This document shows positions 33,037 through 62,491 of a stretch of 64,000 nt of DNA, piece by piece. The notes beneath the pieces are model-generated. The model saw only the letters and a program-made list of their open reading frames with translations, made no database searches and was not told the DNA's origin. The stretch is from a virus. Both the position numbers and the translations under genes were made by a program. The stretch is from positions 1 through 64,000 of the IMG/VR virus record IMGVR_UViG_3300031957_002677; one strand, given 5' to 3'. Within the stretch, counting starts at the first letter, position 1; every line of letters starts with the position of its first letter.

Positions 33037-33229
33037 CGTTCCTAGTAAGTTGCTCCACTATTTCAATGTTAGCATATGTTTCATAATATGCCAAATCCCA
33101 CAATTCATTAAGAATTGCATCATATTCTTTGTAAGATGATCCGTTTACGATACTATTCACCTGTTGTTTGCGAACAGCATCATAAACAAGTTTCCACTGA
33201 TGATGATTCAAATTCATAATATCTATCAA
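33020..33229 (-). CDS. Hypothetical protein
   Basis: 69 aa. Confidence 0.6.
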   Translation of the reverse strand: MIDIMNLNHHQWKLVYDAVRKQQVNSIVNGSSYKEYDAILNELWDLAYYETYANIEIVEQLTRNDENSR

Positions 33230-33618
33230 CCCTGATAGTATGCGTTACGATACAAATAACCACCAGTCCATTCACAATTCTCCAATAAAAATTCACGTTC
33301 TTGAATGATCAAGAGATTGAAACGAACACCTTTTGCAGGTGATTTGTATGATGCTGCCTTGTATACTTCACCAGTCTTCTTGTCAATAAAGGCATGAACT
33401 GAATCGTTTTTGCCATTTTTAGTCATGAAGATCTTGTGATACTTACGACCCATAGAATCAAGATAGAAACCAATGTTACTACCAGTTTGTGGAGCAGTTT
33501 GAGTCAGTGCATCACATAAAATGAGGCAAAACTTAGTGACATTCAACTGAATAGTGTTTCGTGCATCTTGTGTGGCAACGAAATCAGAAAATTCTTTGTT
33601 CACTGGTGTGGTGGTCAA
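33226..33618 (-). CDS. Conserved phage early protein
   Basis: GRKYHKI...SVHAFIDKKTGEVYKAAS..SPAKGVR motif; behind promoter element 9. Confidence 0.75.
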   Translation of the reverse strand: MTTTPVNKEFSDFVATQDARNTIQLNVTKFCLILCDALTQTAPQTGSNIGFYLDSMGRKYHKIFMTKNGKNDSVHAFIDKKTGEVYKAASYKSPAKGVRFNLLIIQEREFLLENCEWTGGYLYRNAYYQG

Positions 33619-33640: not shown

Positions 33641-33699
33641 AATATAGAGCATTTCTAAGGCAAAGTCAAGACCTAGTGTACAGTTCACTTACTGGCACA
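33641..33699 (-). promoter_or_regulatory. Repeated early-promoter element copy 9
   Basis: TGTGCCAGT...AACTGTACAC-6-TTGACT-17-TATATT. Confidence 0.7.
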
Positions 33700-34281
33700 G
33701 TGTACAAACTTTGTGATGGCATATCTATCATTCTCAAGAACATCTGTAACACTATGCTCAATCCAACCAGGAAAAATTACGGTTTTATTATTCTTCGTTT
33801 CAATTTCATGATCATATCTTGGGAAATATAAATTTCCTCCAGCATCTTCTTTATGACAAAGTGTTGTGGTTATTAACACATGCACCCAAGTATCTGAGTG
33901 TGGTTCATATCCATCCCCAGGAAAATATCTTCTAATTTTAGTATAATCTTCACTAGATCTCTGGTATGTAATCCAATAATCATCTTTTGCGATTAAATCA
34001 TCATAAAACTTATCATTATTGAAAAACATATTCTCACAAATCGTTAAGATGTCAGAAATATTACGATAATCATTATGATACACTGAATCTAATGATAAAC
34101 CTTTTGCTGTTGTTAGATATTTTCCTTCATCATCTTTTGCTGCCATATATCCTGCAGGATCCTTGAATTTATTCAAAAGAAAATCAAGTTCTCTCCAAAT
34201 CATGTCATATTGATCTTCATCAAATGTTTCTTCTATGATAACATGAGAGAAAGGTTCAGTGTTAATCTGGTAGTTCATCAT
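33685..34281 (-). CDS. 2OG-Fe(II) oxygenase (prolyl-hydroxylase-like)
   Basis: YEPHSD...GGNLYF...IFPGWIEHSV...RYAIT; likely start MMNYQ. Confidence 0.8.
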   Translation of the reverse strand: MMNYQINTEPFSHVIIEETFDEDQYDMIWRELDFLLNKFKDPAGYMAAKDDEGKYLTTAKGLSLDSVYHNDYRNISDILTICENMFFNNDKFYDDLIAKDDYWITYQRSSEDYTKIRRYFPGDGYEPHSDTWVHVLITTTLCHKEDAGGNLYFPRYDHEIETKNNKTVIFPGWIEHSVTDVLENDRYAITKFVHCASK

Positions 34282-34471
34282 TTTTTTCCAAGAGTTCTTG
34301 CATCGTATCCATAAAATCATCTGCTGAAGATAGAGTATCTAAGGCATGAATCATTTCACCCAATGCTTTAATAAAAAAAGGTTTCTCATTTCTTGCAGCA
34401 AATGCTAATGCTTCACGAAGATGTGTTTGAGCAGAGTCTATTTCTACCCTTACTTGATCAGATAGTGCCAT
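34262..34471 (-). CDS. Conserved small helical hypothetical protein
   Basis: MALSDQV...LREALAFAARNEKP. Confidence 0.7.
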   Translation of the reverse strand: MALSDQVRVEIDSAQTHLREALAFAARNEKPFFIKALGEMIHALDTLSSADDFMDTMQELLEKNDELPD

Positions 34472-35127
34472 TAGTTTTTTCTTCCTGTGTAAATTTTTAG
34501 GTCTTCTTCATATTCAAAATAATCTTCAAGTTCACTATCATCGCAAAAATAGTTTCCCCAACCAGTTGCAATATATTTACTCTTTGAATATACAGGATTT
34601 CCACGATGAGTATGAGTGTAAAATGCGGGCCAAATTAACATCGTCCCTGCTTTTGGTTGTACTCTAAGACCTTGCCAAAGAAACTCACTTTCACCCTCAC
34701 CTTCAGGAATGTCATTCAAATATAACATCCAAGCAACACATCTATCAACAGCACCCAAATCAGTAATCTCACAGTGCCAGTCATGAAATCCACCTCTAGG
34801 TGGAGTTTTTTGAAGTTTTACCTCATCAAAGTTTATAGAAACATAATTAGAAACCCAAAAGATTTTTTGATACTTTTCCCAGCAATACTCTACTGTTTTA
34901 ATAATAAGATCAAATGCTGGACTATGATCCAGATACCACTGATAATCATGCCTAGTTAGATGACCCATTACAGTGCCATCTATTCCCTTCCCAGTTCTAA
35001 GATTGTTGCTTGGATCATCTGGATCCTTATAATTGGAATCAAATAGTGATACTAAAGAATCACAAACATCAATATCCATTACATTTTCATAAAGACCAAT
35101 AAAATCATTATGTTTCATACGACCCAA
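34471..35127 (-). CDS. 2OG-Fe(II) oxygenase (prolyl-hydroxylase-like)
   Basis: FHDWHCE...WMLYLND...GESEF...IWPAFYTHTHRGNP...KYIATGW. Confidence 0.85.
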   Translation of the reverse strand: MGRMKHNDFIGLYENVMDIDVCDSLVSLFDSNYKDPDDPSNNLRTGKGIDGTVMGHLTRHDYQWYLDHSPAFDLIIKTVEYCWEKYQKIFWVSNYVSINFDEVKLQKTPPRGGFHDWHCEITDLGAVDRCVAWMLYLNDIPEGEGESEFLWQGLRVQPKAGTMLIWPAFYTHTHRGNPVYSKSKYIATGWGNYFCDDSELEDYFEYEEDLKIYTGRKN

Positions 35128-36512
35128 GTAATGATAGAAAATCTTGTTCCAGATTTAACTGGCATAATTTCATGTGGGTACATAAAATTAGATGGGAACA
35201 TGATCACATCACCAGCATCCAGTTTATATACCAGTTCACGATTGAATAGTGCAACTTCTCCACCTTCATAAGCATTATTCATTGACACAATCACTGTCAA
35301 TGCTCTAGGTTGTTCTTTGAATGAATCTGTATGTTCAATATAAAAGTCACCCTCTTCATATTTGAGCAGTTCATAACCACTATCCTCCTGGATTTCTAGT
35401 TCAAACTCTGGATGTGCTTCTTGATAAAGTCCGATTAAGTTTTGAACAACCTCAAACATTTGATCATCTAATTGCTTCCTAACCTCAGAATTTTCTTCAG
35501 CAATGATTGATTGTTCAGAGATACAAATTTGTTCACATCTTCTTGCTTCTGGATCGTGACCACTTCCAGTTAATGTTGCTTCCCAATAGTTTGTATTTGC
35601 ATACTCATCTAGGATTTTATCGCATAGTTCAGGATCAACAACTTCTTCACCATACCATACAAAGTCGGCAAGAGATTTAGATGATAATTTGCCAGATGGT
35701 TTTGATTTCTCTTCTACTTTAGGTTCGTTAATCAACTCTGGAGTATCCTTCTTTGTCAAGAACTTTTCATATTTGCTATTAACAATGACTACATCATCAA
35801 AGTCAATATAATCAGTATCATTTACAGGATCTTGCACAATTTCAACTGTTGAAGAGTCTTCATTTTGTTGCTGTTGCTGTCTATACTTCCGAGGAAGAAT
35901 TGTCATGTCACTTACATTAGAAAAGTTTCTCATTTGTTCATACTCCTGTAATAGTTCTTCAGTGTTAATATCTCTAAATTTATTTTTATCAAAGTATGCA
36001 GGACTACACATACCACGACTTCTTACATAATGCAAGAAAAATTGAGTGTACTCTTCACCCTCAAATTCATCTCTCCAATGTGGAGCAATACACCCCAAGT
36101 ATAGCATAGCATCACCAGGATTCAAGTTAACTGATCTATTCTTTCCTTCTGGTGTTTCAATCCAAATTGCCCAAGGTTTATCACTACCAAGGTGCAATGT
36201 CATTGAAATTTCACATCCAGGACGATCAGTATGTCTATGGAGAATACTTCCGTTTCGATATATTCTAGAATAAACGTAAGTGGGAAGAACGGTTTCACCA
36301 ATTAGTTTAGAAACTTCTGGAGTTTTATTTGCCAGAAGTTCTAATGCTGGAAGATAATCATATACTGCTGATGATTTTGGTGCCTGTTCATCACCATTGA
36401 AATCAAAGATTTCATCAGTAACAAAAAACTCTTTCTCTAATTGTGCTGCATGTTGTGGATCAATAAAATTTGGAACAACAATATAGTTGTTCTTCAATAA
36501 TTCAATATTCAT
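35115..36512 (-). CDS. Tandem double-domain 2OG-Fe(II) oxygenase
   Basis: Domain 1: HTDR..CEISMTL...PGDAMLY...HWR...QFFLHY. Domain 2: HTD...YEGGE...FPSNFMYPHEI..V.SGTRFSI. Confidence 0.85.
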   Translation of the reverse strand: MNIELLKNNYIVVPNFIDPQHAAQLEKEFFVTDEIFDFNGDEQAPKSSAVYDYLPALELLANKTPEVSKLIGETVLPTYVYSRIYRNGSILHRHTDRPGCEISMTLHLGSDKPWAIWIETPEGKNRSVNLNPGDAMLYLGCIAPHWRDEFEGEEYTQFFLHYVRSRGMCSPAYFDKNKFRDINTEELLQEYEQMRNFSNVSDMTILPRKYRQQQQQNEDSSTVEIVQDPVNDTDYIDFDDVVIVNSKYEKFLTKKDTPELINEPKVEEKSKPSGKLSSKSLADFVWYGEEVVDPELCDKILDEYANTNYWEATLTGSGHDPEARRCEQICISEQSIIAEENSEVRKQLDDQMFEVVQNLIGLYQEAHPEFELEIQEDSGYELLKYEEGDFYIEHTDSFKEQPRALTVIVSMNNAYEGGEVALFNRELVYKLDAGDVIMFPSNFMYPHEIMPVKSGTRFSIITWVV

Positions 36513-36521
36513 TTCATTCTA

Positions 36522-37856
36522 TCAACTATTCTTATCTAGTACGTCTTTAAGAGCAGCAAACCACTTGACTGCTTTTTCTGCTGGGAATGAATTATCATCT
36601 CTCTCATTATCAGTTAGTGTAGTATAAAGTTGCTCTGGATCAATACCATCCATAAGTGTTAGGATTTCATCAATAGATTTGTCTTCACCACTTTCAATTT
36701 CCTGACGTTCAATGTTAGTCCTAATAAGTTTTTCTTGCTCAGCAGCATAACCACTACTATAAGATGATTCAAGTTTTTGTTTCTGAACTTTTTTATACTC
36801 AACTTCTGCTTTTTCAAATTCACGTTCTACAGCATCATCAAGTTCGTCATATGCTTCTTCTTGAGACATTTTATTGAGAAGATCTTCATGTGCCCTCATA
36901 ATAATATCTAGTTCTTGTTCCTTCTGAATCTCAAATTGAGTTCTTTCTCTCTCCAGTTCTCTCTGAATCCTCTCCCTATTCAAGTTAATTTGATCTTGAA
37001 CTTCTCTATTCTCTAATTCAATAATCTCTAGAACTTGTTTCTGCGATTCAATTTCTATCTTAGAAATATCGAGTTGTTCTTCCTCAAGCAACCTTACTTT
37101 TGCTATCATTTCTTCTCTCATTGCTCTTTCTTTATCTTCGAGAGCAAGATTTTTCTCAGAGTCATCAATTTCACGTTCTATCTTGTCACGTTCCATTTGA
37201 AGCAGTTCTTGATACTGCTTTCGTTCTTCCACAAAGTGTTCCTTTTCTTTCTCAAAATCATGATAAAGTTCATCATATTTTTTAGAAAGTTCTAGAGACT
37301 TTTTCTCGAAGAACTCATCTGCTTTTTGTGCTTCTAACCCTGCTTTTTCGGACTCACGTGCTGCTTTTTCACGTTCAAGTTGAATATTAGCATTTTGTTT
37401 TTCATATTCTAATGCTTGCTCTTTCTTAGACTTTTCATCGTAAAGATTCTCTCTCTCATCACGAAGTTCTTTGTTCTGCCTCTGAAGATCTTCAATAATA
37501 ACAAGTTGTGCTTCTTTCTCCAGTTTATCTAGATTTAATTCCTCGATCTGAGCAGCAAGATTTTCCTCTTCTTTTAGTGCAGATTCAAGTTCTTTTTTCT
37601 CATATACATCCAAAAATGTATTGAAATAATCTAAGTATGGTTGAATAATAGTATTAAATTCATCTTCACCAAAAACTTTATTGGGTGCAGGATCTTCACC
37701 AGGAGTATCTTCATACTCTAGTTCACCTCTACCATCTCTCCATTGAATAGCATGAATAGTCTCGTCATCAAAATCCCAAGGTGCATCATCCTCAAGATCT
37801 ACAGTACGACCATCTACGATAATTTTTTTATCTTCTGGAATAATAGAAATTCTCAT
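36522..37856 (-). CDS. Small globular N-domain plus long Glu-rich coiled coil; possible fibre chaperone
   Basis: IIPEDKKIIVDG...IHAIQW..GRGELEY N-domain, then about 300 aa of E/K/Q-rich helical sequence with net negative charge. Confidence 0.7.
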   Translation of the reverse strand: MRISIIPEDKKIIVDGRTVDLEDDAPWDFDDETIHAIQWRDGRGELEYEDTPGEDPAPNKVFGEDEFNTIIQPYLDYFNTFLDVYEKKELESALKEEENLAAQIEELNLDKLEKEAQLVIIEDLQRQNKELRDERENLYDEKSKKEQALEYEKQNANIQLEREKAARESEKAGLEAQKADEFFEKKSLELSKKYDELYHDFEKEKEHFVEERKQYQELLQMERDKIEREIDDSEKNLALEDKERAMREEMIAKVRLLEEEQLDISKIEIESQKQVLEIIELENREVQDQINLNRERIQRELERERTQFEIQKEQELDIIMRAHEDLLNKMSQEEAYDELDDAVEREFEKAEVEYKKVQKQKLESSYSSGYAAEQEKLIRTNIERQEIESGEDKSIDEILTLMDGIDPEQLYTTLTDNERDDNSFPAEKAVKWFAALKDVLDKNS

Positions 37857-38233
37857 TGTTGATCCTCTTCAGATTTTGGTAGTAAGTTACTTTCTTCAGT
37901 ATTATCTAGTTGTTCGATGTATTCGGAAACATTGACACCCTGATCTTCACACATATCAAGATACATATTACCAACAGCATCTAGCATATTCTGATTGGTT
38001 TCATGTGCTTTCACCATTTCATTTCTAAATGACTCAACAGCAGAACTGGTAGATCTTTGTTGCTGACTGTTTTCAATCATAAGCATTGGCATCCATTGAA
38101 TTGCACACGACCAATGATCTACTTGCTGACCAGTATTAGGATCTTGCCCAGCAATATGTGTGTACCATGCACACTTATGTTCGACACAATCCTTTTTAAT
38201 AAGAGGACACCACTTGCCAGATGCTTTAGTCAT
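37853..38233 (-). CDS. Cys-rich fibre-associated hypothetical protein
   Basis: CPLIKKDCVEHKCAW...CAI.W.P.L.IEN...AVESFRNEMVK; ATAAATA upstream at 38253-38259. Confidence 0.75.
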   Translation of the reverse strand: MTKASGKWCPLIKKDCVEHKCAWYTHIAGQDPNTGQQVDHWSCAIQWMPMLMIENSQQQRSTSSAVESFRNEMVKAHETNQNMLDAVGNMYLDMCEDQGVNVSEYIEQLDNTEESNLLPKSEEDQQ

Positions 38234-38269
38234 AAGATGAAATTCAGTGTATTATTTATTATAGCACGA

Positions 38270-39532
38270 TCAATCCAAAGTGCAAAGGATCACATCGATA
38301 TATTGAACTCTCAATGGTGATAATGAAGCAACAAAACTAACAGGACTTCCACTAAATGGATGACTATGTGGTTGACCACCACCAGTTGATGATGTTGCTG
38401 GACCTTGAGTATTGCTATTTCTAATAGTACCACCAGGAGTCAAAATTCTCTGTGTTACCCTCACACTTGTAGTTTGTGGATATCTTTGAGGTGTACGATA
38501 TGCTCTTGGTTGCCTATAAGCTGCAGGATTTCTTTGAGGAACTGTAACTCTGAATGGAATATTCACTCGGAAAGAATTTCTCTGTCTGAATGAATATCTC
38601 ACTCTGAATGATCTAGGTTGCCTCTGTCTAAATGATCTCCTCTGCCTAACATTTCTAGGTTGTCTAGTATTACGAGGTTGACGGAAAGATCTTCTCTGCC
38701 TAGAAGATACAGGTCTCCTAAACTGCCTTCTCTGTCTCCACCAACTTACTCTAGGTTGTCTTCTATCTGCTCTTCTTGGGATTCTATCATTTCTCCTTCT
38801 CCTACCCCATCTTCTTCTAGGTGTTCTGTCATTATTTCTGACACTTGCTCTCCAAGATTGACCAATAGGGTTTCTCCATCTTCCACCATCAACACGGAAA
38901 CTGAACGGTCTTCGTGATCTTAAAGGAACACGAAAAGCAATAGGAACTCTGAAACTGATTGGTCTTCTAGAACGTGTAGGGTATCTAACTCTTTGGTTTC
39001 TTGGTTGTCTCTGTCTGAGTGGAACTCTTTGTCTTCGTGGTTGTCTATAGTTACGAGGTTGCCTTACATTAGTTGGTTGTCTAAAGTTGACAATAACACG
39101 GTTATTGATCTGGACTCTTCTTGCCGCTCTAATATTATATCCACGTGGTTGCCTATTACTGGTTCTAAATGGTGAAGAACCAGCAGATGATCTATATGAG
39201 TTTGGATTACTTCCCGTATTATGTGTATGTGCTGGTAATTGTTGAGTGGTAAGTGTAGTACCACCCGAAGAACCTGCAATGGTCGAACTACAATTTGCAT
39301 CTGCACCTGCATCAGCAAATACTGCACTAAAATCAAGTGCTCCAGATGATAATCCACCAGTACCATCTACAACTCTAAGTGATTGATCATTTGCCTGTGT
39401 TTCTTTGGACCATCCAGTTGGTGCTGATGCTTGATAAAACACCATTGTAGAGGATTGTGGAATGATCCCATAAAATGTTGATAATTGAGTACCATTGCCA
39501 AATTCGATCCCATCTGCTCTTAAAATAGACAT
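38270..39532 (-). CDS. Collar-type short tail fibre paralogue with Arg-rich repeat insert
   Basis: IPQ...VFYQASAPTGW...LRVV collar-like region; TLTTQQLPAHTH and GGGQPHSH HxH motifs; LRVQYIDVILC C-terminus; ~250-aa Arg-rich insert between the HxH motifs. Confidence 0.75.
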   Translation of the reverse strand: MSILRADGIEFGNGTQLSTFYGIIPQSSTMVFYQASAPTGWSKETQANDQSLRVVDGTGGLSSGALDFSAVFADAGADANCSSTIAGSSGGTTLTTQQLPAHTHNTGSNPNSYRSSAGSSPFRTSNRQPRGYNIRAARRVQINNRVIVNFRQPTNVRQPRNYRQPRRQRVPLRQRQPRNQRVRYPTRSRRPISFRVPIAFRVPLRSRRPFSFRVDGGRWRNPIGQSWRASVRNNDRTPRRRWGRRRRNDRIPRRADRRQPRVSWWRQRRQFRRPVSSRQRRSFRQPRNTRQPRNVRQRRSFRQRQPRSFRVRYSFRQRNSFRVNIPFRVTVPQRNPAAYRQPRAYRTPQRYPQTTSVRVTQRILTPGGTIRNSNTQGPATSSTGGGQPHSHPFSGSPVSFVASLSPLRVQYIDVILCTLD

Positions 39533-39542
39533 ATATTATACC

Positions 39543-40079
39543 TCAACTAAAACGACAGATAATGACATCAATATACTTAACTCTTAGATCAATATTTCCA
39601 GTATATGGTGATGCTCCACCATTAAATGGGTGAGTATGTGCTGCACCTCCACCAGTTGGTGATGTTGCTGGAGCACTGGTATTTACAGCACGACCACCAA
39701 TACCAGGAGATCCAGGACTTACATTAACCTGAGAACCAGCATTATGAGTATGCCCAGGAATTTGTTGAGTTGTCAATGTTGTAGGTCCTAATGAACCAGC
39801 AGCAGTTACAGTTCCACTAATTGGACGAGTTGATGTGGGAAATATTGTGGAGAATGGTTGTCCACCAGGACCAGCAGTTCCACCAGAACCAAATCCACCA
39901 CCAGTTCCAGATACAACTCTAAGTGCCTTATTATTATGAGAAGTTACTTGTGCCCATCCACTAGGTGCCGATGCCTGATAAAATACTGCAACACTATTTT
40001 GAGGGATAATTCCATATTTAGAGTTCAGAACGGTATTATCAGATCCAAATTGTATACCACTCGTTTGTAAAATAGACAT
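39543..40079 (-). CDS. Collar-type short tail fibre protein
   Basis: Same architecture without the insert (TLTTQQIPGHTH...GGGAAHTH...LRVKYIDVIIC); late promoter ATAAATA at 40114-40120. Confidence 0.8.
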   Translation of the reverse strand: MSILQTSGIQFGSDNTVLNSKYGIIPQNSVAVFYQASAPSGWAQVTSHNNKALRVVSGTGGGFGSGGTAGPGGQPFSTIFPTSTRPISGTVTAAGSLGPTTLTTQQIPGHTHNAGSQVNVSPGSPGIGGRAVNTSAPATSPTGGGAAHTHPFNGGASPYTGNIDLRVKYIDVIICRFS

Positions 40080-40116
40080 ATTATACCAATTACTAACAAC
40101 AGATAACGTGTATTAT

Positions 40117-40797
40117 TTATCCAATATTAAATGCGATGGATATTCTTTCTTCTTGACTAAAGTGTGGTGTAACATAATGTGCGACTGTAGATGGCATTAA
40201 ATAGAAAACATCTTCCTTAGGTTCAATTACCCACTCACAATTCCCAGGAATATCAGCAAAACAAGCATTGTGATTTGATGGATCAGTTCTTAGTAAAGTG
40301 AGTTTACCTTCCTGTTCATTTAGGTTCTTAGGAATTTTTGGATAATAAAGTCCAATAACAGTACATCCAGGATGAGTATGATAAACATTATATCCCATTC
40401 CCTTGTTAATGTTAATCCACCATCCAATTTGATTATCATCTACCCTATAAGTTGCACCAAAGTCTTCCAGCATTTCATTTGTTAGATCGATGGCATTTCT
40501 TGCTAAATTTTGAACAGCAGGAGTTGTTGTTCTTTTGATTGTGGGTAATTCATAAACCTGACTTTGCCATCCTTCACCAAAATTAGATTTTTTCACTCCA
40601 TTAGGAAACTTTCTCATTAGATCATAACATTCATGGATAAGAGATTCGTTATCAATATCTAAAGTGAAAGTATATAGTGGTGTGATGAAGAGGTCATCAC
40701 GACTTTTGTCAGAAACAGTAATCTCTGAGAAATTATCATCGTTTGGACTAATCTCAGCTCTAAATCTGTGCATATCAATCTTGCTCCTCAGTTTCAT
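40117..40797 (-). CDS. Putative 2OG-Fe(II) oxygenase (TIGR02466-like)
   Basis: SNFGEGWQS, WININ..MGYNVYHTHP...GLYY...MPSTVAHYV.P....ERISIAFN. Confidence 0.8.
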   Translation of the reverse strand: MKLRSKIDMHRFRAEISPNDDNFSEITVSDKSRDDLFITPLYTFTLDIDNESLIHECYDLMRKFPNGVKKSNFGEGWQSQVYELPTIKRTTTPAVQNLARNAIDLTNEMLEDFGATYRVDDNQIGWWININKGMGYNVYHTHPGCTVIGLYYPKIPKNLNEQEGKLTLLRTDPSNHNACFADIPGNCEWVIEPKEDVFYLMPSTVAHYVTPHFSQEERISIAFNIG

Positions 40798-41512
40798 TCA
40801 TCATAAAAAATACTTGATTAATTCTATATTCAGCATCACTATAGTGATCACCAAAATAATGTTCACCAGTTAAGTTCATACTATGATAATAATATGATCC
40901 TTCAAACATTGCAAATCTATTAAATTTTGAACGAAAACTAACTACAATTTCCCATAAGTTTTTTGGTGTCCATGGTATTGCATGTTCATCTCTAACACCA
41001 TTATTTTCATCCAGAGGTAAGAGGTCTGGATTATCAGTAATTAATGGTTTATATAAGTTAGTCCCTATCTCATCATTCGTGGATAAGTAACAGATACCAT
41101 TATATCCTCCATCATGATGAGGCCACCAGTAATGACTTTCATATGGATTATCATCAATTCGTGAGAATCTTGTAAAATTAGTTACTATTTCATCCACATC
41201 TGCCGATTCTTGATTACAAATACCTGAGATCTTATTGTATAGTGAAGACATACCAGGATGCTTCATCATATGTCTACGATCCTCAAAGTTCTTGGTGTTG
41301 AGTGTACCTCTACCAAGTTCCCAATCTTCTCCCATTTTCCACAATGGTGGTTCAATAGACAGAAGATATTCATAGACATCATATGGTCTTTTATAAAAAT
41401 TATCCATCCAATAAAAATTGGAAACCTTATCACCATCATAAAACTCAATGATATTCATATTAGAAAAATCATTGGTATCAAACAATGAATGATCATTTGC
41501 AAAATTTTTCAT
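40775..41512 (-). CDS. 2OG-Fe(II) oxygenase-like (DUF6445-like)
   Basis: DNFYKRP..V, PHHD...GICYL...GTNLY, KFNR...F.G..YHS, RINQVFF. Confidence 0.7.
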   Translation of the reverse strand: MKNFANDHSLFDTNDFSNMNIIEFYDGDKVSNFYWMDNFYKRPYDVYEYLLSIEPPLWKMGEDWELGRGTLNTKNFEDRRHMMKHPGMSSLYNKISGICNQESADVDEIVTNFTRFSRIDDNPYESHYWWPHHDGGYNGICYLSTNDEIGTNLYKPLITDNPDLLPLDENNGVRDEHAIPWTPKNLWEIVVSFRSKFNRFAMFEGSYYYHSMNLTGEHYFGDHYSDAEYRINQVFFMMNETEEQD

Positions 41513-42072
41513 AAAAATATCTCCTGTATTTTTTCATCATCTAAACAAAATCCAAAAACCCATAATATTCTAGGAGTATCACCTTTAGTCGGAGTTACTT
41601 CATGATGAATCTCAGATACTTGATATATCAAAAGGTCTGTAGAATTTATGTCTTTATATTCTACACCACCAATGATAGTATGTCCACCCACATCTGCCTG
41701 TTGTGTGATAGCATTGAAGTGAACTGTTTTAGTATTTGGATAATATGTAGGGTCAATATGATTATCTATTCTACCACCTTCATATCCAATTCCATTTACG
41801 ATTCCATGACTATATGATGGTGGACTTTTATACCATTCTAGATGAAAATAATTGATTATTCTTTGCCTGACAATATGTGCAGCATTAGGATATTGTATAT
41901 CTGGAGCAACTGATTCATTTGGAAACCGAGTTGTAAATCTCGTTCCAGGATTATCAGGATCCATGTTAGCATCCTCAAAGAATTCTTGATTACAATTATC
42001 AAGAGTCCATTGATTAAGTGCCTTTACATCATCTTTGAATATAAAATTGCGAAGAATAAATGATTTAGACAT
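41509..42072 (-). CDS. Putative 2OG-Fe(II) oxygenase
   Basis: HIDP...FN..TQ....GG...HHEVTP..G..PRILWVFGF; likely start MSKSFIL. Confidence 0.75.
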   Translation of the reverse strand: MSKSFILRNFIFKDDVKALNQWTLDNCNQEFFEDANMDPDNPGTRFTTRFPNESVAPDIQYPNAAHIVRQRIINYFHLEWYKSPPSYSHGIVNGIGYEGGRIDNHIDPTYYPNTKTVHFNAITQQADVGGHTIIGGVEYKDINSTDLLIYQVSEIHHEVTPTKGDTPRILWVFGFCLDDEKIQEIFL

Positions 42073-42733
42073 CTTGGGTGCAATACTCACCACCACCCTT
42101 TTCTTCATCTGCAAAAGCAAAACTCTCGTATTCTGTATTCAAATTAAATGAAAGAATAATTCTGTCCTCATCACTTTCATTTGGAGCAGTGTAATGAAGA
42201 ACATATGATGGGAAGAAAAGAATAGATCCTTCTCTAATTCCTGGTGGAAGAGTATTACAAATCTCAGTATCTGCTAGATTGGGATTTAGAAATATGGTTG
42301 GTGTGTGTTTATTAGGATCAAATTTAATGAAACAAACAGCACTAAATCCCTGCGATCCATGATTATGAACCTGATGAAACTTACTATGAGTTGCTCTCTC
42401 AAACCAAGACGTACATACTTCTACAGCACACTCAAAGGTATCCGAAAAAGATTCTAATTCTGATTGAAGAATCTGCGTAATCTCTCTATCATAAGTTTCT
42501 CCAGTATCATGATTATGATGATAGTCAGTTTCCACATCTAGAGAAGATTCTGAACCTGTAGCAATCTTAAATTTATCTCTTTCATCCCTTCTCCGTTCAA
42601 ACATATCAAGGAGAATTGCTTTCTTTTCCTCCCAGTCTTCTACTTTAAGATGTAGAAGTGGAACAGAAAACATAGGAATCAAGTATTCACTATGCCCTTC
42701 AGGAACTTCACAGTATAAATGAAAATTTGACAT
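42065..42733 (-). CDS. Putative 2OG-Fe(II) oxygenase (TIGR02466-like)
   Basis: HQVHNHG...FSAVCF...EGSILFFPSYVLHYT.PN....RIILSFN. Confidence 0.8.
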   Translation of the reverse strand: MSNFHLYCEVPEGHSEYLIPMFSVPLLHLKVEDWEEKKAILLDMFERRRDERDKFKIATGSESSLDVETDYHHNHDTGETYDREITQILQSELESFSDTFECAVEVCTSWFERATHSKFHQVHNHGSQGFSAVCFIKFDPNKHTPTIFLNPNLADTEICNTLPPGIREGSILFFPSYVLHYTAPNESDEDRIILSFNLNTEYESFAFADEEKGGGEYCTQDV

Positions 42734-42738
42734 ACTAA

Positions 42739-42963
42739 TTACTTTTTCGTTTTCTTTTTATATCTTTTTTGTAATTTTAACACATCTTTCATTGCTGTGT
42801 CAAATTTACGGTAAAGTTTACCTGTTGGTTTTCCTTCAGCAATAATTGTGTATTTAACACCATTTCCTGCCATCGGAATCACAACAAAGTTTCCATCATC
42901 AGAGCAGAATTGTTTGTAATGAGTAGATTCTAACACTGATGAGTTAGTATATGTATACTTCAT
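42739..42963 (-). CDS. Basic hypothetical protein
   Basis: 74 aa. Confidence 0.65.
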   Translation of the reverse strand: MKYTYTNSSVLESTHYKQFCSDDGNFVVIPMAGNGVKYTIIAEGKPTGKLYRKFDTAMKDVLKLQKRYKKKTKK

Positions 42964-44309: not shown

Positions 44310-44474
44310 TCAGATCATTTTCATCGTCTCTTGTTGTTTGAAATATAATTTTACATATGATTTAAGCATCGTTCGTAGACCCTCAATATCTTCAATCTTA
44401 TCAATATCTCTTGAAAGTCTTTCATACTCAAAAGATTTTGATGGTGTTTGTAATGAAATCTCAGATGGGTCCAT
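44310..44474 (-). CDS. 54-aa two-helix protein, possibly NblA-like
   Basis: Read by hand: MDPSEISLQTPSKSFEYERLSRDIDKIEDIEGLRTMLKSYVKLYFKQQETMKMI; AAGGAG RBS; own promoter. Confidence 0.5.
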   Translation of the reverse strand: MDPSEISLQTPSKSFEYERLSRDIDKIEDIEGLRTMLKSYVKLYFKQQETMKMI

Positions 44475-48087: not shown

Positions 48088-50022
48088 TTATTCGTATGAT
48101 ATAGTTATTCCTTCAAGAGTTATATTTTCCATAGAAACTTTATCATCATTAGCATATGGGTTATAAGTAACTCTTGGATCTGCACCTCTTAAATTATAAC
48201 TTCCAGTCCAATAATTTGTTTGAGTGTCGTCATTAATTGCAGAATAAAAACCATCACCAGAACCAGAAGTTGTAGTTACTGGTAAAATAGTAGTGCCATG
48301 ATCTTTTAACCAATTATGAACTGCTCTAGAATCTGCAGTTGGATTTGCTTCTAAAAATAATGCAATCAAACCACATGCAACGGGAGATGCAGCAGAAGTT
48401 CCATTGAAAGATGCATCATAAAAATTAGAATCATCATATCTTTCATAATCATTATATCCACCATCAGAAAAAACTCCACCAGCAGCAAGAGTTTCATCTG
48501 CTGGAGCCCAAACATCAATACCAGGACCATTGTTTGAATATGATGCCTGATATTCTGCACCAGGAGTAGTCAAAGTATCTTCTAATGCACCAACACATAC
48601 AACAGGATGAAAGTCTTTTGACTCATCAAATCCAATTCCCTGAGGATTCATCCAATCACGATGATTGCAAGGAACTGTAGTTGATGGAAATTCATCTCTA
48701 GGGTCCGTTGTACTAAAGTAATCATCTTCCAAATAATTTAATCTATCTGGATCAGTTGCACCAATACCTAGTCTTTGATTATTATTTCCTGCTGCTGCAA
48801 CATAAATGACACCTTCTAACATCAATTCATTTGCAGCAGCATCAGTTGAATTGGAACGTGAAGAAGATGACCAAGATTTATATGCACCATTGACTTGATT
48901 ACTCAATCCACTTTTCATTGCAGTAACTTGATCTGTTACTGATGCATCTCCAATAAATGAACCTGTTGAACCTCTAAAATTATAAATTACGGTATCACTA
49001 GATGAGAATGCTGCTTGATATCCCCAACTACCATTAATAATCGTTGGATTCTTTCTACCAGTTGATGAATTAACTGGTTTTAGACGTTGCCAAAGTTTCA
49101 TCGCATCATAATTAGTTTCAATACCCATTGAAACATTGTCACCAATACCAGGCATGTTCCAAATATTTGCTTCAAAAGCATTACCAAAGTTTTTACCTGC
49201 TACTAATGATGCACATGCAGTTCCGTGTCCACTTGTTAAACTATTAGTACCATCTAAAGATCCACCCATAGATCTTGCTTCAGTATAATTTGCAGATACT
49301 GTAATAGTTCCTTCTGATTGAAACTGTGCAGATCTATTTAAACTGTTTGTCCACCAATCTCTAGATGCTGATTCTTGTCCTGTTACTCTACCATCTGCTC
49401 TTGTAGTTGTATATCCATTAGAGATAAAGTAATCTGGATCAATATAATATGGACCATCAAGAATAATATCTCTTACTCTAGATTGACTATTTCCATCCAT
49501 AAACTCTGGATGATATTGTAAAACTCCAGAGTCATGAATAATTACATCCACATTCCTACCAGTTAGAGTGAAAGAAACGTCACCTTCTTGAACTGCAACA
49601 GTACCACTATTATCTGAAAAAAATGTGCCAGTTTGCCTGACTGTTGGCCTTGCTACACCATAATTAGATCTATCTAGTTCTACATCAGTTGGATTAGTTG
49701 CAGGTATGCTTGCAGAAAGTACATCACGATAGAACTTTACATTCTTCTTAAATCTTTTTGTGGCAAATTGAGGTTCTGGATATGAATCTGGATTATCAAT
49801 AGGTGATAATTCTATCCATTTAATATGAGGATGAGCAGCAATCTCTGCTGCTTCCTCTTCTGTCAGTTCATAAGTTCCACGAGTAGAACTATGTTCTTTA
49901 AAATCTGTACATGCTACTTGTCTATCAGGAATACCATCTTGATTAGAGTCTACAATTAATGCATCATGAATCTCAGTCCAATATTCTGGACTTGTAACGG
50001 ATAATTCGTATCTTTGCATCAA
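48088..50022 (-). CDS. Subtilisin-like (S8) serine peptidase
   Basis: IIHDSG (Asp), HGTACAS (His), AAAGN (oxyanion Asn), GTSAASP (Ser). Confidence 0.9.
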   Translation of the reverse strand: MMQRYELSVTSPEYWTEIHDALIVDSNQDGIPDRQVACTDFKEHSSTRGTYELTEEEAAEIAAHPHIKWIELSPIDNPDSYPEPQFATKRFKKNVKFYRDVLSASIPATNPTDVELDRSNYGVARPTVRQTGTFFSDNSGTVAVQEGDVSFTLTGRNVDVIIHDSGVLQYHPEFMDGNSQSRVRDIILDGPYYIDPDYFISNGYTTTRADGRVTGQESASRDWWTNSLNRSAQFQSEGTITVSANYTEARSMGGSLDGTNSLTSGHGTACASLVAGKNFGNAFEANIWNMPGIGDNVSMGIETNYDAMKLWQRLKPVNSSTGRKNPTIINGSWGYQAAFSSSDTVIYNFRGSTGSFIGDASVTDQVTAMKSGLSNQVNGAYKSWSSSSRSNSTDAAANELMLEGVIYVAAAGNNNQRLGIGATDPDRLNYLEDDYFSTTDPRDEFPSTTVPCNHRDWMNPQGIGFDESKDFHPVVCVGALEDTLTTPGAEYQASYSNNGPGIDVWAPADETLAAGGVFSDGGYNDYERYDDSNFYDASFNGTSAASPVACGLIALFLEANPTADSRAVHNWLKDHGTTILPVTTTSGSGDGFYSAINDDTQTNYWTGSYNLRGADPRVTYNPYANDDKVSMENITLEGITISYE

Positions 50023-61918: not shown

Positions 61919-62491
61919 TTATTTAAATGGTGGTCCTCCCATCCAACCAACTAATGAAAACCTTTTTCCCGATTTAATTGGTCTTACTCTATGTTGCAAT
62001 ATTGATGGAAACACTATAACTTCACCACAATCAAGTTTAATTGTTTCTTTCATTGTTGATGATGGCCAATATAGTTCAAATTCACCACCTTCATAATCAT
62101 CCTTTGATGATAAGCACATAACAATACTAAGTTTTCTAGTAAGTTTTTCAGATAAAGATTCGTTATCCACATCAATATGCCATCCATAATAATCACCTTC
62201 AGAATCATATACAGTAAATTGAATATGTTTTCTAAATCCATCTATATCAAAATTAAAATATAATGAATTTGCACTATTGGCAAAATGTGCCAACATTCCC
62301 GCAATCCAAGTATCATTATTAATCCAAAATACTTTTGATTTTCTATATTTGTAATTTACCGAATTGACTCCTCCATTTTTTCCCACTTCGGCAATATTTA
62401 ATTCATCTTCATTATAATACTTCTTTATAATTTCATCACAAATAATCTTAGGTATCTCTGAAGGAATTCTATAGTAGTTCAGTAGTGTCAT
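61919..62491 (-). CDS. 2OG-Fe(II) oxygenase (PKHD/prolyl-hydroxylase type)
   Basis: YGWHID...RKLS....LS..DDYEGGEF...VFPS..QHRVRP.KSGKRFSLVGW..GP. Confidence 0.9.
   Translation of the reverse strand: MTLLNYYRIPSEIPKIICDEIIKKYYNEDELNIAEVGKNGGVNSVNYKYRKSKVFWINNDTWIAGMLAHFANSANSLYFNFDIDGFRKHIQFTVYDSEGDYYGWHIDVDNESLSEKLTRKLSIVMCLSSKDDYEGGEFELYWPSSTMKETIKLDCGEVIVFPSILQHRVRPIKSGKRFSLVGWMGGPPFK

Follow-up and report, generated by a model that had tools for sequence, protein, structure and literature searches.

Why would a phage keep seven genes for oxygenases that depend on 2-oxoglutarate (2OG) and Fe(II) packed around the genes for the tip of a tail fibre? The question is raised by a block at positions 33685-42733 of a 64,000-nucleotide stretch of viral DNA (IMG/VR record IMGVR_UViG_3300031957_002677, positions 1 to 64,000; here called the window). 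The window covers part of a viral contig of 89.8 kb in IMG/VR; the virus, a T4-like cyanomyovirus, has Synechococcus phage S-SCSM1 as its closest isolate. Over about 9 kb of the minus strand, 12 co-oriented open reading frames (ORFs), p1 to p12, follow one another with gaps of at most 37 nt and with several overlaps. Seven of them encode 2OG-Fe(II) oxygenases with eight catalytic domains between them (p1-p4, p9, p10 and p12), and these surround the four genes of a fibre module: p5 and p6, paralogous proteins that share a collar motif and two HxH motifs; p7, a protein with four invariant cysteines (Cys4); and p8, an acidic coiled-coil protein. This was also the picture drawn by a first-pass annotation made from the sequence alone, and its tight co-oriented packing, its count of enzymes and domains and its description of the four module proteins were all borne out. 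A single T4-like cyanophage can have as many as 24 genes for 2OG-Fe(II) oxygenases, and the conserved order of the module names concrete candidate substrates for these enzymes. To our knowledge, no substrate is known for the 2OG-Fe(II) oxygenases of cyanophages.

Our answer is that a protein of the fibre module may be the substrate, a reading to which we give nearly even chances on the evidence of sequence. The core of the block would be an accessory, late-expressed tail-fibre-tip module, consisting of the tips p5 and p6, the Cys4 protein p7 and the acidic p8, the last of these related to tail-fibre-assembly factors, and the two-domain oxygenase p9 would be its habitual downstream companion. 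During assembly, enzymes of the p9 type, possibly together with p10, p12 and p2, would hydroxylate a side chain of a module protein, either the tip or a helper. The substrate, the modification and its timing are the steps that we infer.

The fibre module and its oxygenase neighbours in other phages

The wider survey was anchored on p7, which has at least 544 matches in IMG/VR and is the most widespread partner of collar/HxH fibres; distinct p7 loci were counted, either 55 or 61 depending on the question. Directly upstream of p7, a gene for a collar/HxH fibre stands in 57 of 61 distinct loci; it encodes 150-1350 aa and is present in one to three copies. Directly after p7, a short p8 homologue (80-270 aa) is found in 43 of 55. 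An oxygenase gene starts within 2 kb downstream of p7 in 47 of 55 distinct loci (85%), roughly 12-fold above background: 663 kb of cyanomyovirus loci that lack the module gave 0.07 oxygenase matches per 2 kb. The linked enzyme is usually p9-like, either fused (~385-405 aa) or split into two adjacent genes, and p10-, p2- or p1-like genes often come next. Throughout, the module genes are co-oriented, with gaps of 2-4 nt or overlaps.

Fibre, p7, p8 and a p9-type oxygenase form a widespread order, with both the order and its context variable. Three p5-like genes are followed by p10, p9, p7 and p8 in one locus (L171), p5 is followed by p7, the two halves of p9 (p9N and p9C) and p8 in another (L191), and a third (L188) shows a further variant. 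The module stands among virion structural genes in L185 and L167, and in the cultured phage P-SSM2 a fibre gene, p7, p8 and a gene named 'piuC' lie within the tail-fibre cluster. In L031 a fibre with an Mtd_N domain, p7 and p8 are followed by a PF13759 enzyme, and in S-SCSM2R glycosyltransferase genes come after a run of a p10-like gene, p7, a short p8 and p9 that has no fibre gene next to it. In 17 loci p9 overlaps, at its 3' end, with the first member of a set of three glycosyltransferase genes, and these glycosyltransferases are absent from the window; the loci with such runs are L128-L146, L159 and L161 (for example L130:10003-12471), along with S-SCSM2R, L035:8281-10564. In the clades that have three glycosyltransferase genes after p9, hydroxylation may prepare a site for glycosylation. 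As judged from gene order, there is real support for the link between module and enzyme, which survives rearrangement, the fusion or splitting of p9 and changes of context that include structural gene clusters.

In the helper-like partner p8, a conserved N-terminal domain of ~50-85 aa is followed by an acidic coiled coil of ~300 aa and a short C-terminal part. Two of its homologues, CRP-361 gp41 (5e-18) and PSSM2_030 (3e-11), match tail-fibre-assembly PHROGs, and the part they share with p8 is the N-terminal domain. The charge of p8 follows that of p6 with r = 0.76 across 15 related lineages of the clade; we dropped this match as evidence of a specific pairing because p8 is just as acidic beside neutral fibres.

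Catalytic domains and predicted transcription units

The features of the block are collected in Table 1. The longest-ORF starts of p2 (TTG at 42120) and p12 (ATG at 34320) would each place more than 50 nt of the gene inside the one upstream. The true starts of both genes are probably internal because the S-SCSM1 annotation has shorter forms, and for p2 the start would probably be the internal ATG at 42072, as in S-SCSM1 ORF241. Both p11 and the DUF7717 protein come after p9 or p10 in many unrelated-looking loci, and they may share the conserved neighbourhood.

Table 1. Coordinates of the block genes, promoter-like motifs and downstream neighbour in the window
Feature	Position	Strand	Evidence
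p1, 222 aa, 2OG-Fe(II) oxygenase, PF13759	42065-42733	-	PF13759 45.8 bits (cut-off 27); phrog_81 6e-36
p2, ~187-203 aa, oxygenase, PHD/P4H-like fold	41509-42120	-	invariant triad; AlphaFold2 model
p3, 245 aa, divergent 2OG oxygenase	40775-41512	-	phrog_1644 (misnamed 'minor coat protein'); invariant triad; AlphaFold2 model
p4, 226 aa, 2OG-Fe(II) oxygenase	40117-40797	-	PF13759 52.6 bits
p5, 178 aa, minimal collar/HxH fibre-tip protein	39543-40079	-	family profile against PDB tail fibres
p6, 420 aa, p5 paralogue with large insert between two HxH motifs	38270-39532	-	comparison with p5; S-SCSM1 ORF245 orthologue
p6 insert, aa 105-388, 284 aa	38369-39220	-	sole open frame there
p7, 126 aa, Cys4 protein	37853-38233	-	invariant C9, C16, C21, C43
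p8, 444 aa, acidic coiled-coil protein	36522-37856	-	net charge -59
p9, 465 aa, two-domain 2OG oxygenase	35115-36512	-	N domain: PHROG families misnamed 'ferrochelatase'; C domain: PF13640, P4H-like
p10, 218 aa, PF13640 oxygenase	34471-35127	-	Pfam and PHROG matches
p11, 69 aa, small conserved protein (phrog_1179)	34262-34471	-	follows p9 or p10 in many loci
p12, ~195-211 aa, PF13640 oxygenase, dispensable in several lineages	33685-34320	-	Pfam match
DUF7717 gene, usual downstream neighbour of module	33226-33618	-	PF24835 4e-49; synteny
Sigma-70-like promoter, TTGACA-18 nt-TAAAAT with TG	42774-42803	-	~40 nt upstream of p1, inside 3' end of 74-aa ORF
T4-late-like ATAAATA	40114-40120	-	41 nt upstream of p5 start
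Second late-like ATAAATA	38253-38259	-	26 nt upstream of p7

The classification by profile or structure that the first-pass annotation had suggested as a check was carried out for the eight domains. PF13759 is matched above the Pfam threshold by p1 and p4, and PF13640 by p9C, p10 and p12, in keeping with the earlier description of the downstream trio as prolyl-hydroxylase-like with one two-domain member. Some of its finer labels did not hold: p1 and p4 had been called TIGR02466-like, and they are related, yet their scores of 31.3 and 52.0 bits fall below the curated NCBI cut-off of 62.5; and p3, which had been called DUF6445-like, matched no Pfam family, DUF6445 included, even at E<=10. For p2, too, there was no Pfam match, and PDB sequence-profile searches with p2 and p3 gave nothing useful.

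The catalytic residues are invariant at H121, D123, H173 and R184 in p2 and at H132, D134 and H210 in p3 (10 orthologues each). In p9 there are two complete triads, H94/D96/H145 in p9N and H394/D396/H447 with R457 in p9C, likewise invariant (9-10 orthologues), and because p9 has two full triads the block counts eight catalytic domains. The HxD...H motif is visible also in p1, p4, p10 and p12, and the triad is intact in all eight. The AlphaFold model of p2 (pLDDT 91) is a double-stranded beta-helix, and the nearest structures in Foldseek are Dictyostelium PHD, a Pseudomonas prolyl 4-hydroxylase (P4H) that acts on EF-Tu, and PHD2. The p3 model (pLDDT 79) is a generic double-stranded beta-helix, nearest to OGFOD1, ALKBH2/3 and PHD2 with a TM of ~0.45, and p9C gives weak matches to Bacillus P4H and PHD2. 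The assignment of p9N, which draws on PHROG families and on language-model neighbours among 2OG oxygenases, has the weakest support of the eight; Pfam searches of p9 N-terminal domains gave a single match, to Asp_Arg_Hydrox, below threshold and in one orthologue. By PF13640 or nearest fold, four of the eight domains (p9C, p10, p12 and p2) are predicted to be of P4H/PHD type. Oxygenases of the P4H, PHD and OGFOD1 types usually act on proteins. Since many phages (L164-L190) have the halves of p9 as neighbouring but separate genes, at times with a p2-like gene between them, the 465-aa p9 is a gene fusion. The public names given to members of the p9 family, 'ferrochelatase', 'piuC' and 'DNA endonuclease', look like misnomers. 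One more PF13640 oxygenase gene lies outside the block, at 61940-62221 on the minus strand.

The oxygenases might instead serve the module without modifying any fibre residue, either by managing the Fe(II) or Zn of the HxH sites or by modifying p7 or p8 and so controlling assembly. In T4 gp37 and gp12 the HxH motifs are binding sites for Fe or Zn, the actual neighbours of p9 in most loci are p7 and p8, and the S-SCSM2R run from the p10-like gene through p7 and p8 to p9 stands without an adjacent fibre gene. The intact triads and 2OG-binding arginine, however, point to catalysis, and we know of no 2OG oxygenase that works as a metal chaperone; in either form, we hold this explanation to be very improbable.

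Promoter-like motifs divide the block. The strong sigma-70-type motif before p1 (TTGACAC...TAAAAT) is kept in L005, L010, L014, L016, L017, L021 and L025. The late-like site before p5 is kept in all lineages examined, as CTAAATA in L024, L026 and L027, and the one before p7 is kept in nearly all lineages in the context TATAATAAATA. Between 30 and 50 kb of the window, the minus strand has ATAAATA four times only: near 48091, before the gene for a 1028-aa virion protein, before p5 and before p7. For at least three of these sites (the one near 48091 apart), the next gene codes for a virion, tail or fibre-module protein. No ATAAATA precedes p6, p8 or p9, genes that abut or overlap their upstream neighbours, and the exact T4 late motif TATAAATA does not occur in the block, where only the relaxed forms ATAAATA and CTAAATA are found. 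From the placement of the sigma-70-type and ATAAATA motifs we predict three units: p1-p4, early-type; p5-p6, late; and p7-p12, late. As a separate early-type unit, p1-p4 may act on something other than the module.

Upstream of the block are the 74-aa ORF, a helicase gene and nblA, and then, ~1.9 kb away and from 44584 onward, a virion and tail-fibre cluster, nearly all of whose S-SCSM1 counterparts (ORF226-236) are annotated as virion proteins by mass spectrometry. The first-pass annotation had placed the block far from the other structural genes, which is not the case. At the position of S-SCSM1 nblA, which encodes a phycobilisome degradation protein, the window has a 54-aa ORF (44310-44474, minus strand) with a strong TTGACA-17-TACAAT promoter.

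How much of the association could be a coincidence of architecture? A variable island, reaching from the helicase to DUF7717 at the edge of the structural cluster, may simply collect oxygenases while fibre cassettes are swapped in, and the enzymes would then act elsewhere, such as on 2OG levels, on host proteins (EF-Tu, ribosomal proteins), or on nucleic acids or small molecules. We take this possibility seriously, at somewhat less than even chances. In the module-free loci L066, L093 and L099, genes like p1, p4, p9, p10 and p12 are scattered next to the helicase, p1-p4 have a sigma-70-type promoter of their own, the fold of p3 is equally near to AlkB DNA repair enzymes and to protein hydroxylases, and the published ideas for cyanophage oxygenases are the sensing or modulation of 2OG and nitrogen, or DNA repair (PMC3037559; PMC9602691). 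What this explanation does not readily accommodate is the excess of adjacency over the background, the persistence of the link when gene order changes, when p9 is fused or split and when the module moves to other contexts, and the fact that p8 and p9 are translationally coupled or nearly so.

Several further observations weigh against a fibre-module substrate. Phage S-T4 has the helicase, two oxygenases, a p9 homologue in the matching position (50% identity over the N-terminal domain), another oxygenase and DUF7717, with none of p5-p8; the first-pass annotation had itself said that the same oxygenases in relatives without fibre genes would count against it, and S-T4 provides this in part. A p9-like gene of ACG-2014f likewise sits among metabolic genes, without p5-p8, and among isolates 175 records have p9-like genes as against 13 with p7. 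Conversely, fibre-p7(-p8) modules free of oxygenases occur in the S-B05 group, the Roseobacter podovirus CRP-361, a Ralstonia phage and L177-L181. The p8 of the window itself found no match to tail-fibre-assembly models in the PHROG search, and p8 proteins are equally acidic (-25 to -69) beside near-neutral fibres. Many of the 55 loci may share ancestry, so that the counts are not counts of independent events, and the promoter calls come from motif matches alone. Finally, S-SCSM1 has 24 oxygenase genes, and islands of such genes are common; seven of those 24 fall within 12 genes of ~280, for which simulation gives P ~0.001, a figure that ignores the habit of these genes to sit in islands.

The fibre tips and the arginine-rich insert

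By their sequences, p5 and p6 are collar/HxH tail-fibre-tip proteins like T4 gp12 and gp37. Their N-terminal 104 and C-terminal 32 residues, which include the collar motif and the two HxH motifs, are common to both, and the spacing between the HxH motifs is 35 residues in p5 and 284 in p6. The family profile matches tail fibres in the PDB (9qgo, 2e-10; 9nxk, 1e-6). In S-SCSM1, the p5 orthologue ORF244 gave gp37, gp12 and gp10 by HHpred (PMC9602691) and is annotated as a virion protein by mass spectrometry (MK867354.2; PMC9602691), and the p6 orthologue ORF245, 77% identical to p6, gave gp12 at 99.2% (PMC9602691). ORF245 has no virion flag; trypsin would cut its Arg-rich part into very small peptides.

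Among fibres with linked oxygenases, 93% keep a proline at the second position ahead of the first HxH, as against two of eight without; we offer this comparison, whose second set (n=8) is tiny and clustered, as a lead only. The same proline is present in the solved tail fibres that the profile matches. We know of no linked oxygenase in the phages of those solved fibres.

Of the 284 residues in the p6 insert, 79 are Arg, 30 are Pro and 27 are Gln, while Lys and Glu do not occur. The sequence is arranged in hexapeptide-like repeats as two arms that flank a poly-Arg centre; Arg and Pro recur with a period of 6 and hydrophobic residues with a period of 2. If its topology is gp37-like, the insert would form a beta-structured hairpin needle with surface Arg and a poly-Arg tip. 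An alternative reading frame was ruled out, every other frame being interrupted by stops, and the alignment to S-SCSM1 is free of indels. Its ratio of nonsynonymous to synonymous substitution (dN/dS) is 0.26-0.32, like that of the flanks, which marks the insert as a genuine stretch of protein under selection. The p6 family is rare, at 43 clusters among 5.8 billion proteins, and its divergent members are alike in kind, having inserts of 275-365 aa and net charges of +37 to +79. An Arg-rich, lysine-free repeat tip is an unusual adhesin design in itself.

Comparison with L003, from another metagenome, shows where this tip changes: 81 of 98 mismatches to the window fall inside the p6 insert (38400-39300), without indels, while p2-p4 have none over ~1650 nt and p7 has one. 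So sharply bounded a difference at the fibre tip points to allele exchange at a hot spot of the receptor-binding type. Hypermutation of the insert was ruled out, for the differences are mostly synonymous (dS 0.22, dN 0.07), as allele exchange would give.

Is this insert, then, what the enzymes are for? The first-pass annotation had proposed that all seven enzymes act on the p6 repeat, rich in Arg, Pro, Asn and Gln, in a cassette organised like one for ribosomally synthesised and post-translationally modified peptides (RiPPs). In its favour, all loci that bear p6 have the largest batteries (6-8 domains), Arg, Pro and Tyr are the best conserved residues of the insert, with recurring RQPR motifs, and the prolyl 4-hydroxylase of virus PBCV-1 is described as acting on Pro-rich repeats (cited in PMC9301287). 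However, the p1-p12 order is kept in ~25 IMG/VR contigs, with identities down to 61% (p5), ~28% (p6) and 34% (p1) and, in some lineages, with the helicase on the opposite flank, and these contigs are one syntenic lineage and therefore count as a single event, as does the whole p6 family of 43 clusters. Lineages that keep the insert have lost p12 (L016, L018, L022, L027 and L028) or p10 (L016 and L018), loci without it can have 4-5 oxygenase genes (L173, L180 and L188), and p1-p4 are apparently a separate early unit. The Arg-rich insert is missing from most linked fibres, which are close to neutral in charge, and p2-, p10- and p1-like genes recur downstream of them; since these fibres lack the insert, the link to oxygenases is a property of the fibre-p7-p8 module at large, one that predates the insert and reaches beyond it. 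That the enzymes are linked to insert-less fibres, that p9 homologues exist without a fibre and that p1-p4 have a separate promoter together argue that the insert did not recruit them. What stands of the earlier proposal is the association itself, found in most module loci in varied orders and contexts; the repeat as the explanation of all seven enzymes does not, and we consider it improbable.

In our reading of the block, the lineage of S-SCSM1 has added to the module the 284-aa Arg/Gln/Pro hexapeptide-repeat hairpin on p6, a much longer acidic coil on p8 and flanking oxygenases on both sides. A bolder extension, which we think rather unlikely though worth stating, is that a good part of the 2OG-Fe(II) oxygenases in cyanophages, the p9 family and companion enzymes, are dedicated to maturing collar/HxH tips. 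Hydroxylating the tip would then prime it for glycosylation in some clades, and the battery of the S-SCSM1 lineage would decorate a poly-Arg needle that determines the host. Our literature search found no paper linking cyanophage oxygenases to tail fibres, and the use of prolyl 4-hydroxylase by viruses has been called 'cryptic' in a recent survey (PMC9301287). Since the module is present in the cultured phages S-SCSM1, P-SSM2 and S-SCSM2R, the substrate question is directly testable. A hydroxylated phage receptor-binding protein would, if true, be a new layer of host-range control, one that depends on oxygen and 2OG and hence is tied to the photosynthetic and nitrogen state of the host.

Comparison with known systems

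The closest counterpart is in S-SCSM1 (MK867354.2), which is 78% identical in nucleotide sequence over 96% of the block and in which ORF240-251 correspond to p1-p12 in unchanged order, with the seven oxygenases and two fibre genes already annotated. The paper describing that phage (PMC9602691) treats its 24 oxygenases as metabolic reprogramming genes and passes without comment over the block, the Arg-rich insert, p7, p8 and any link to the fibre.

Among fibres, T4 gp12 and gp37 and the structures 9qgo and 9nxk have in common with p5 and p6 the collar motif (AP-GW ... LRVV-G-G), the 'L-T...IP-H-H' motif and a second HxH. In the topology of gp12 and gp37 an insert between the HxH motifs falls at the distal tip, as it would for p6. 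Unlike the T4 fibres, p5 (178 aa) and p6 (420 aa) have no shaft, and T4 has no linked oxygenase. We know of no fibre tip with an Arg-rich hexapeptide-repeat insert like that of p6. The p8 protein resembles assembly helpers of the Tfa/gp57A type in its place after the fibre and p7, in its acidity and in its helicity, and its homologues in CRP-361 and P-SSM2 match the corresponding PHROGs; it differs from them in that the p8 of the window has no such match and carries ~300 aa of extra acidic coil.

RiPP clusters are alike in having a candidate substrate gene flanked by several tailoring-type enzymes. The likeness drawn by the first-pass annotation is one of analogy only, however, for the 12 genes include no short leader-core precursor, recognition element, protease or exporter, and the candidate substrate here is a folded virion protein. 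The 17 loci in which glycosyltransferase genes follow a hydroxylase gene can be likened to collagen and Skp1, where hydroxylation is followed by glycosylation. The nearest precedent is the chlorovirus PBCV-1, which encodes an oxygenase of the P4H type and whose own Pro-rich repeat proteins are the proposed substrates (Eriksson et al. 1999, as cited in PMC9301287); here the host is a bacterium, the candidate substrate is the tip of a phage fibre and the repeats are not collagen-like.

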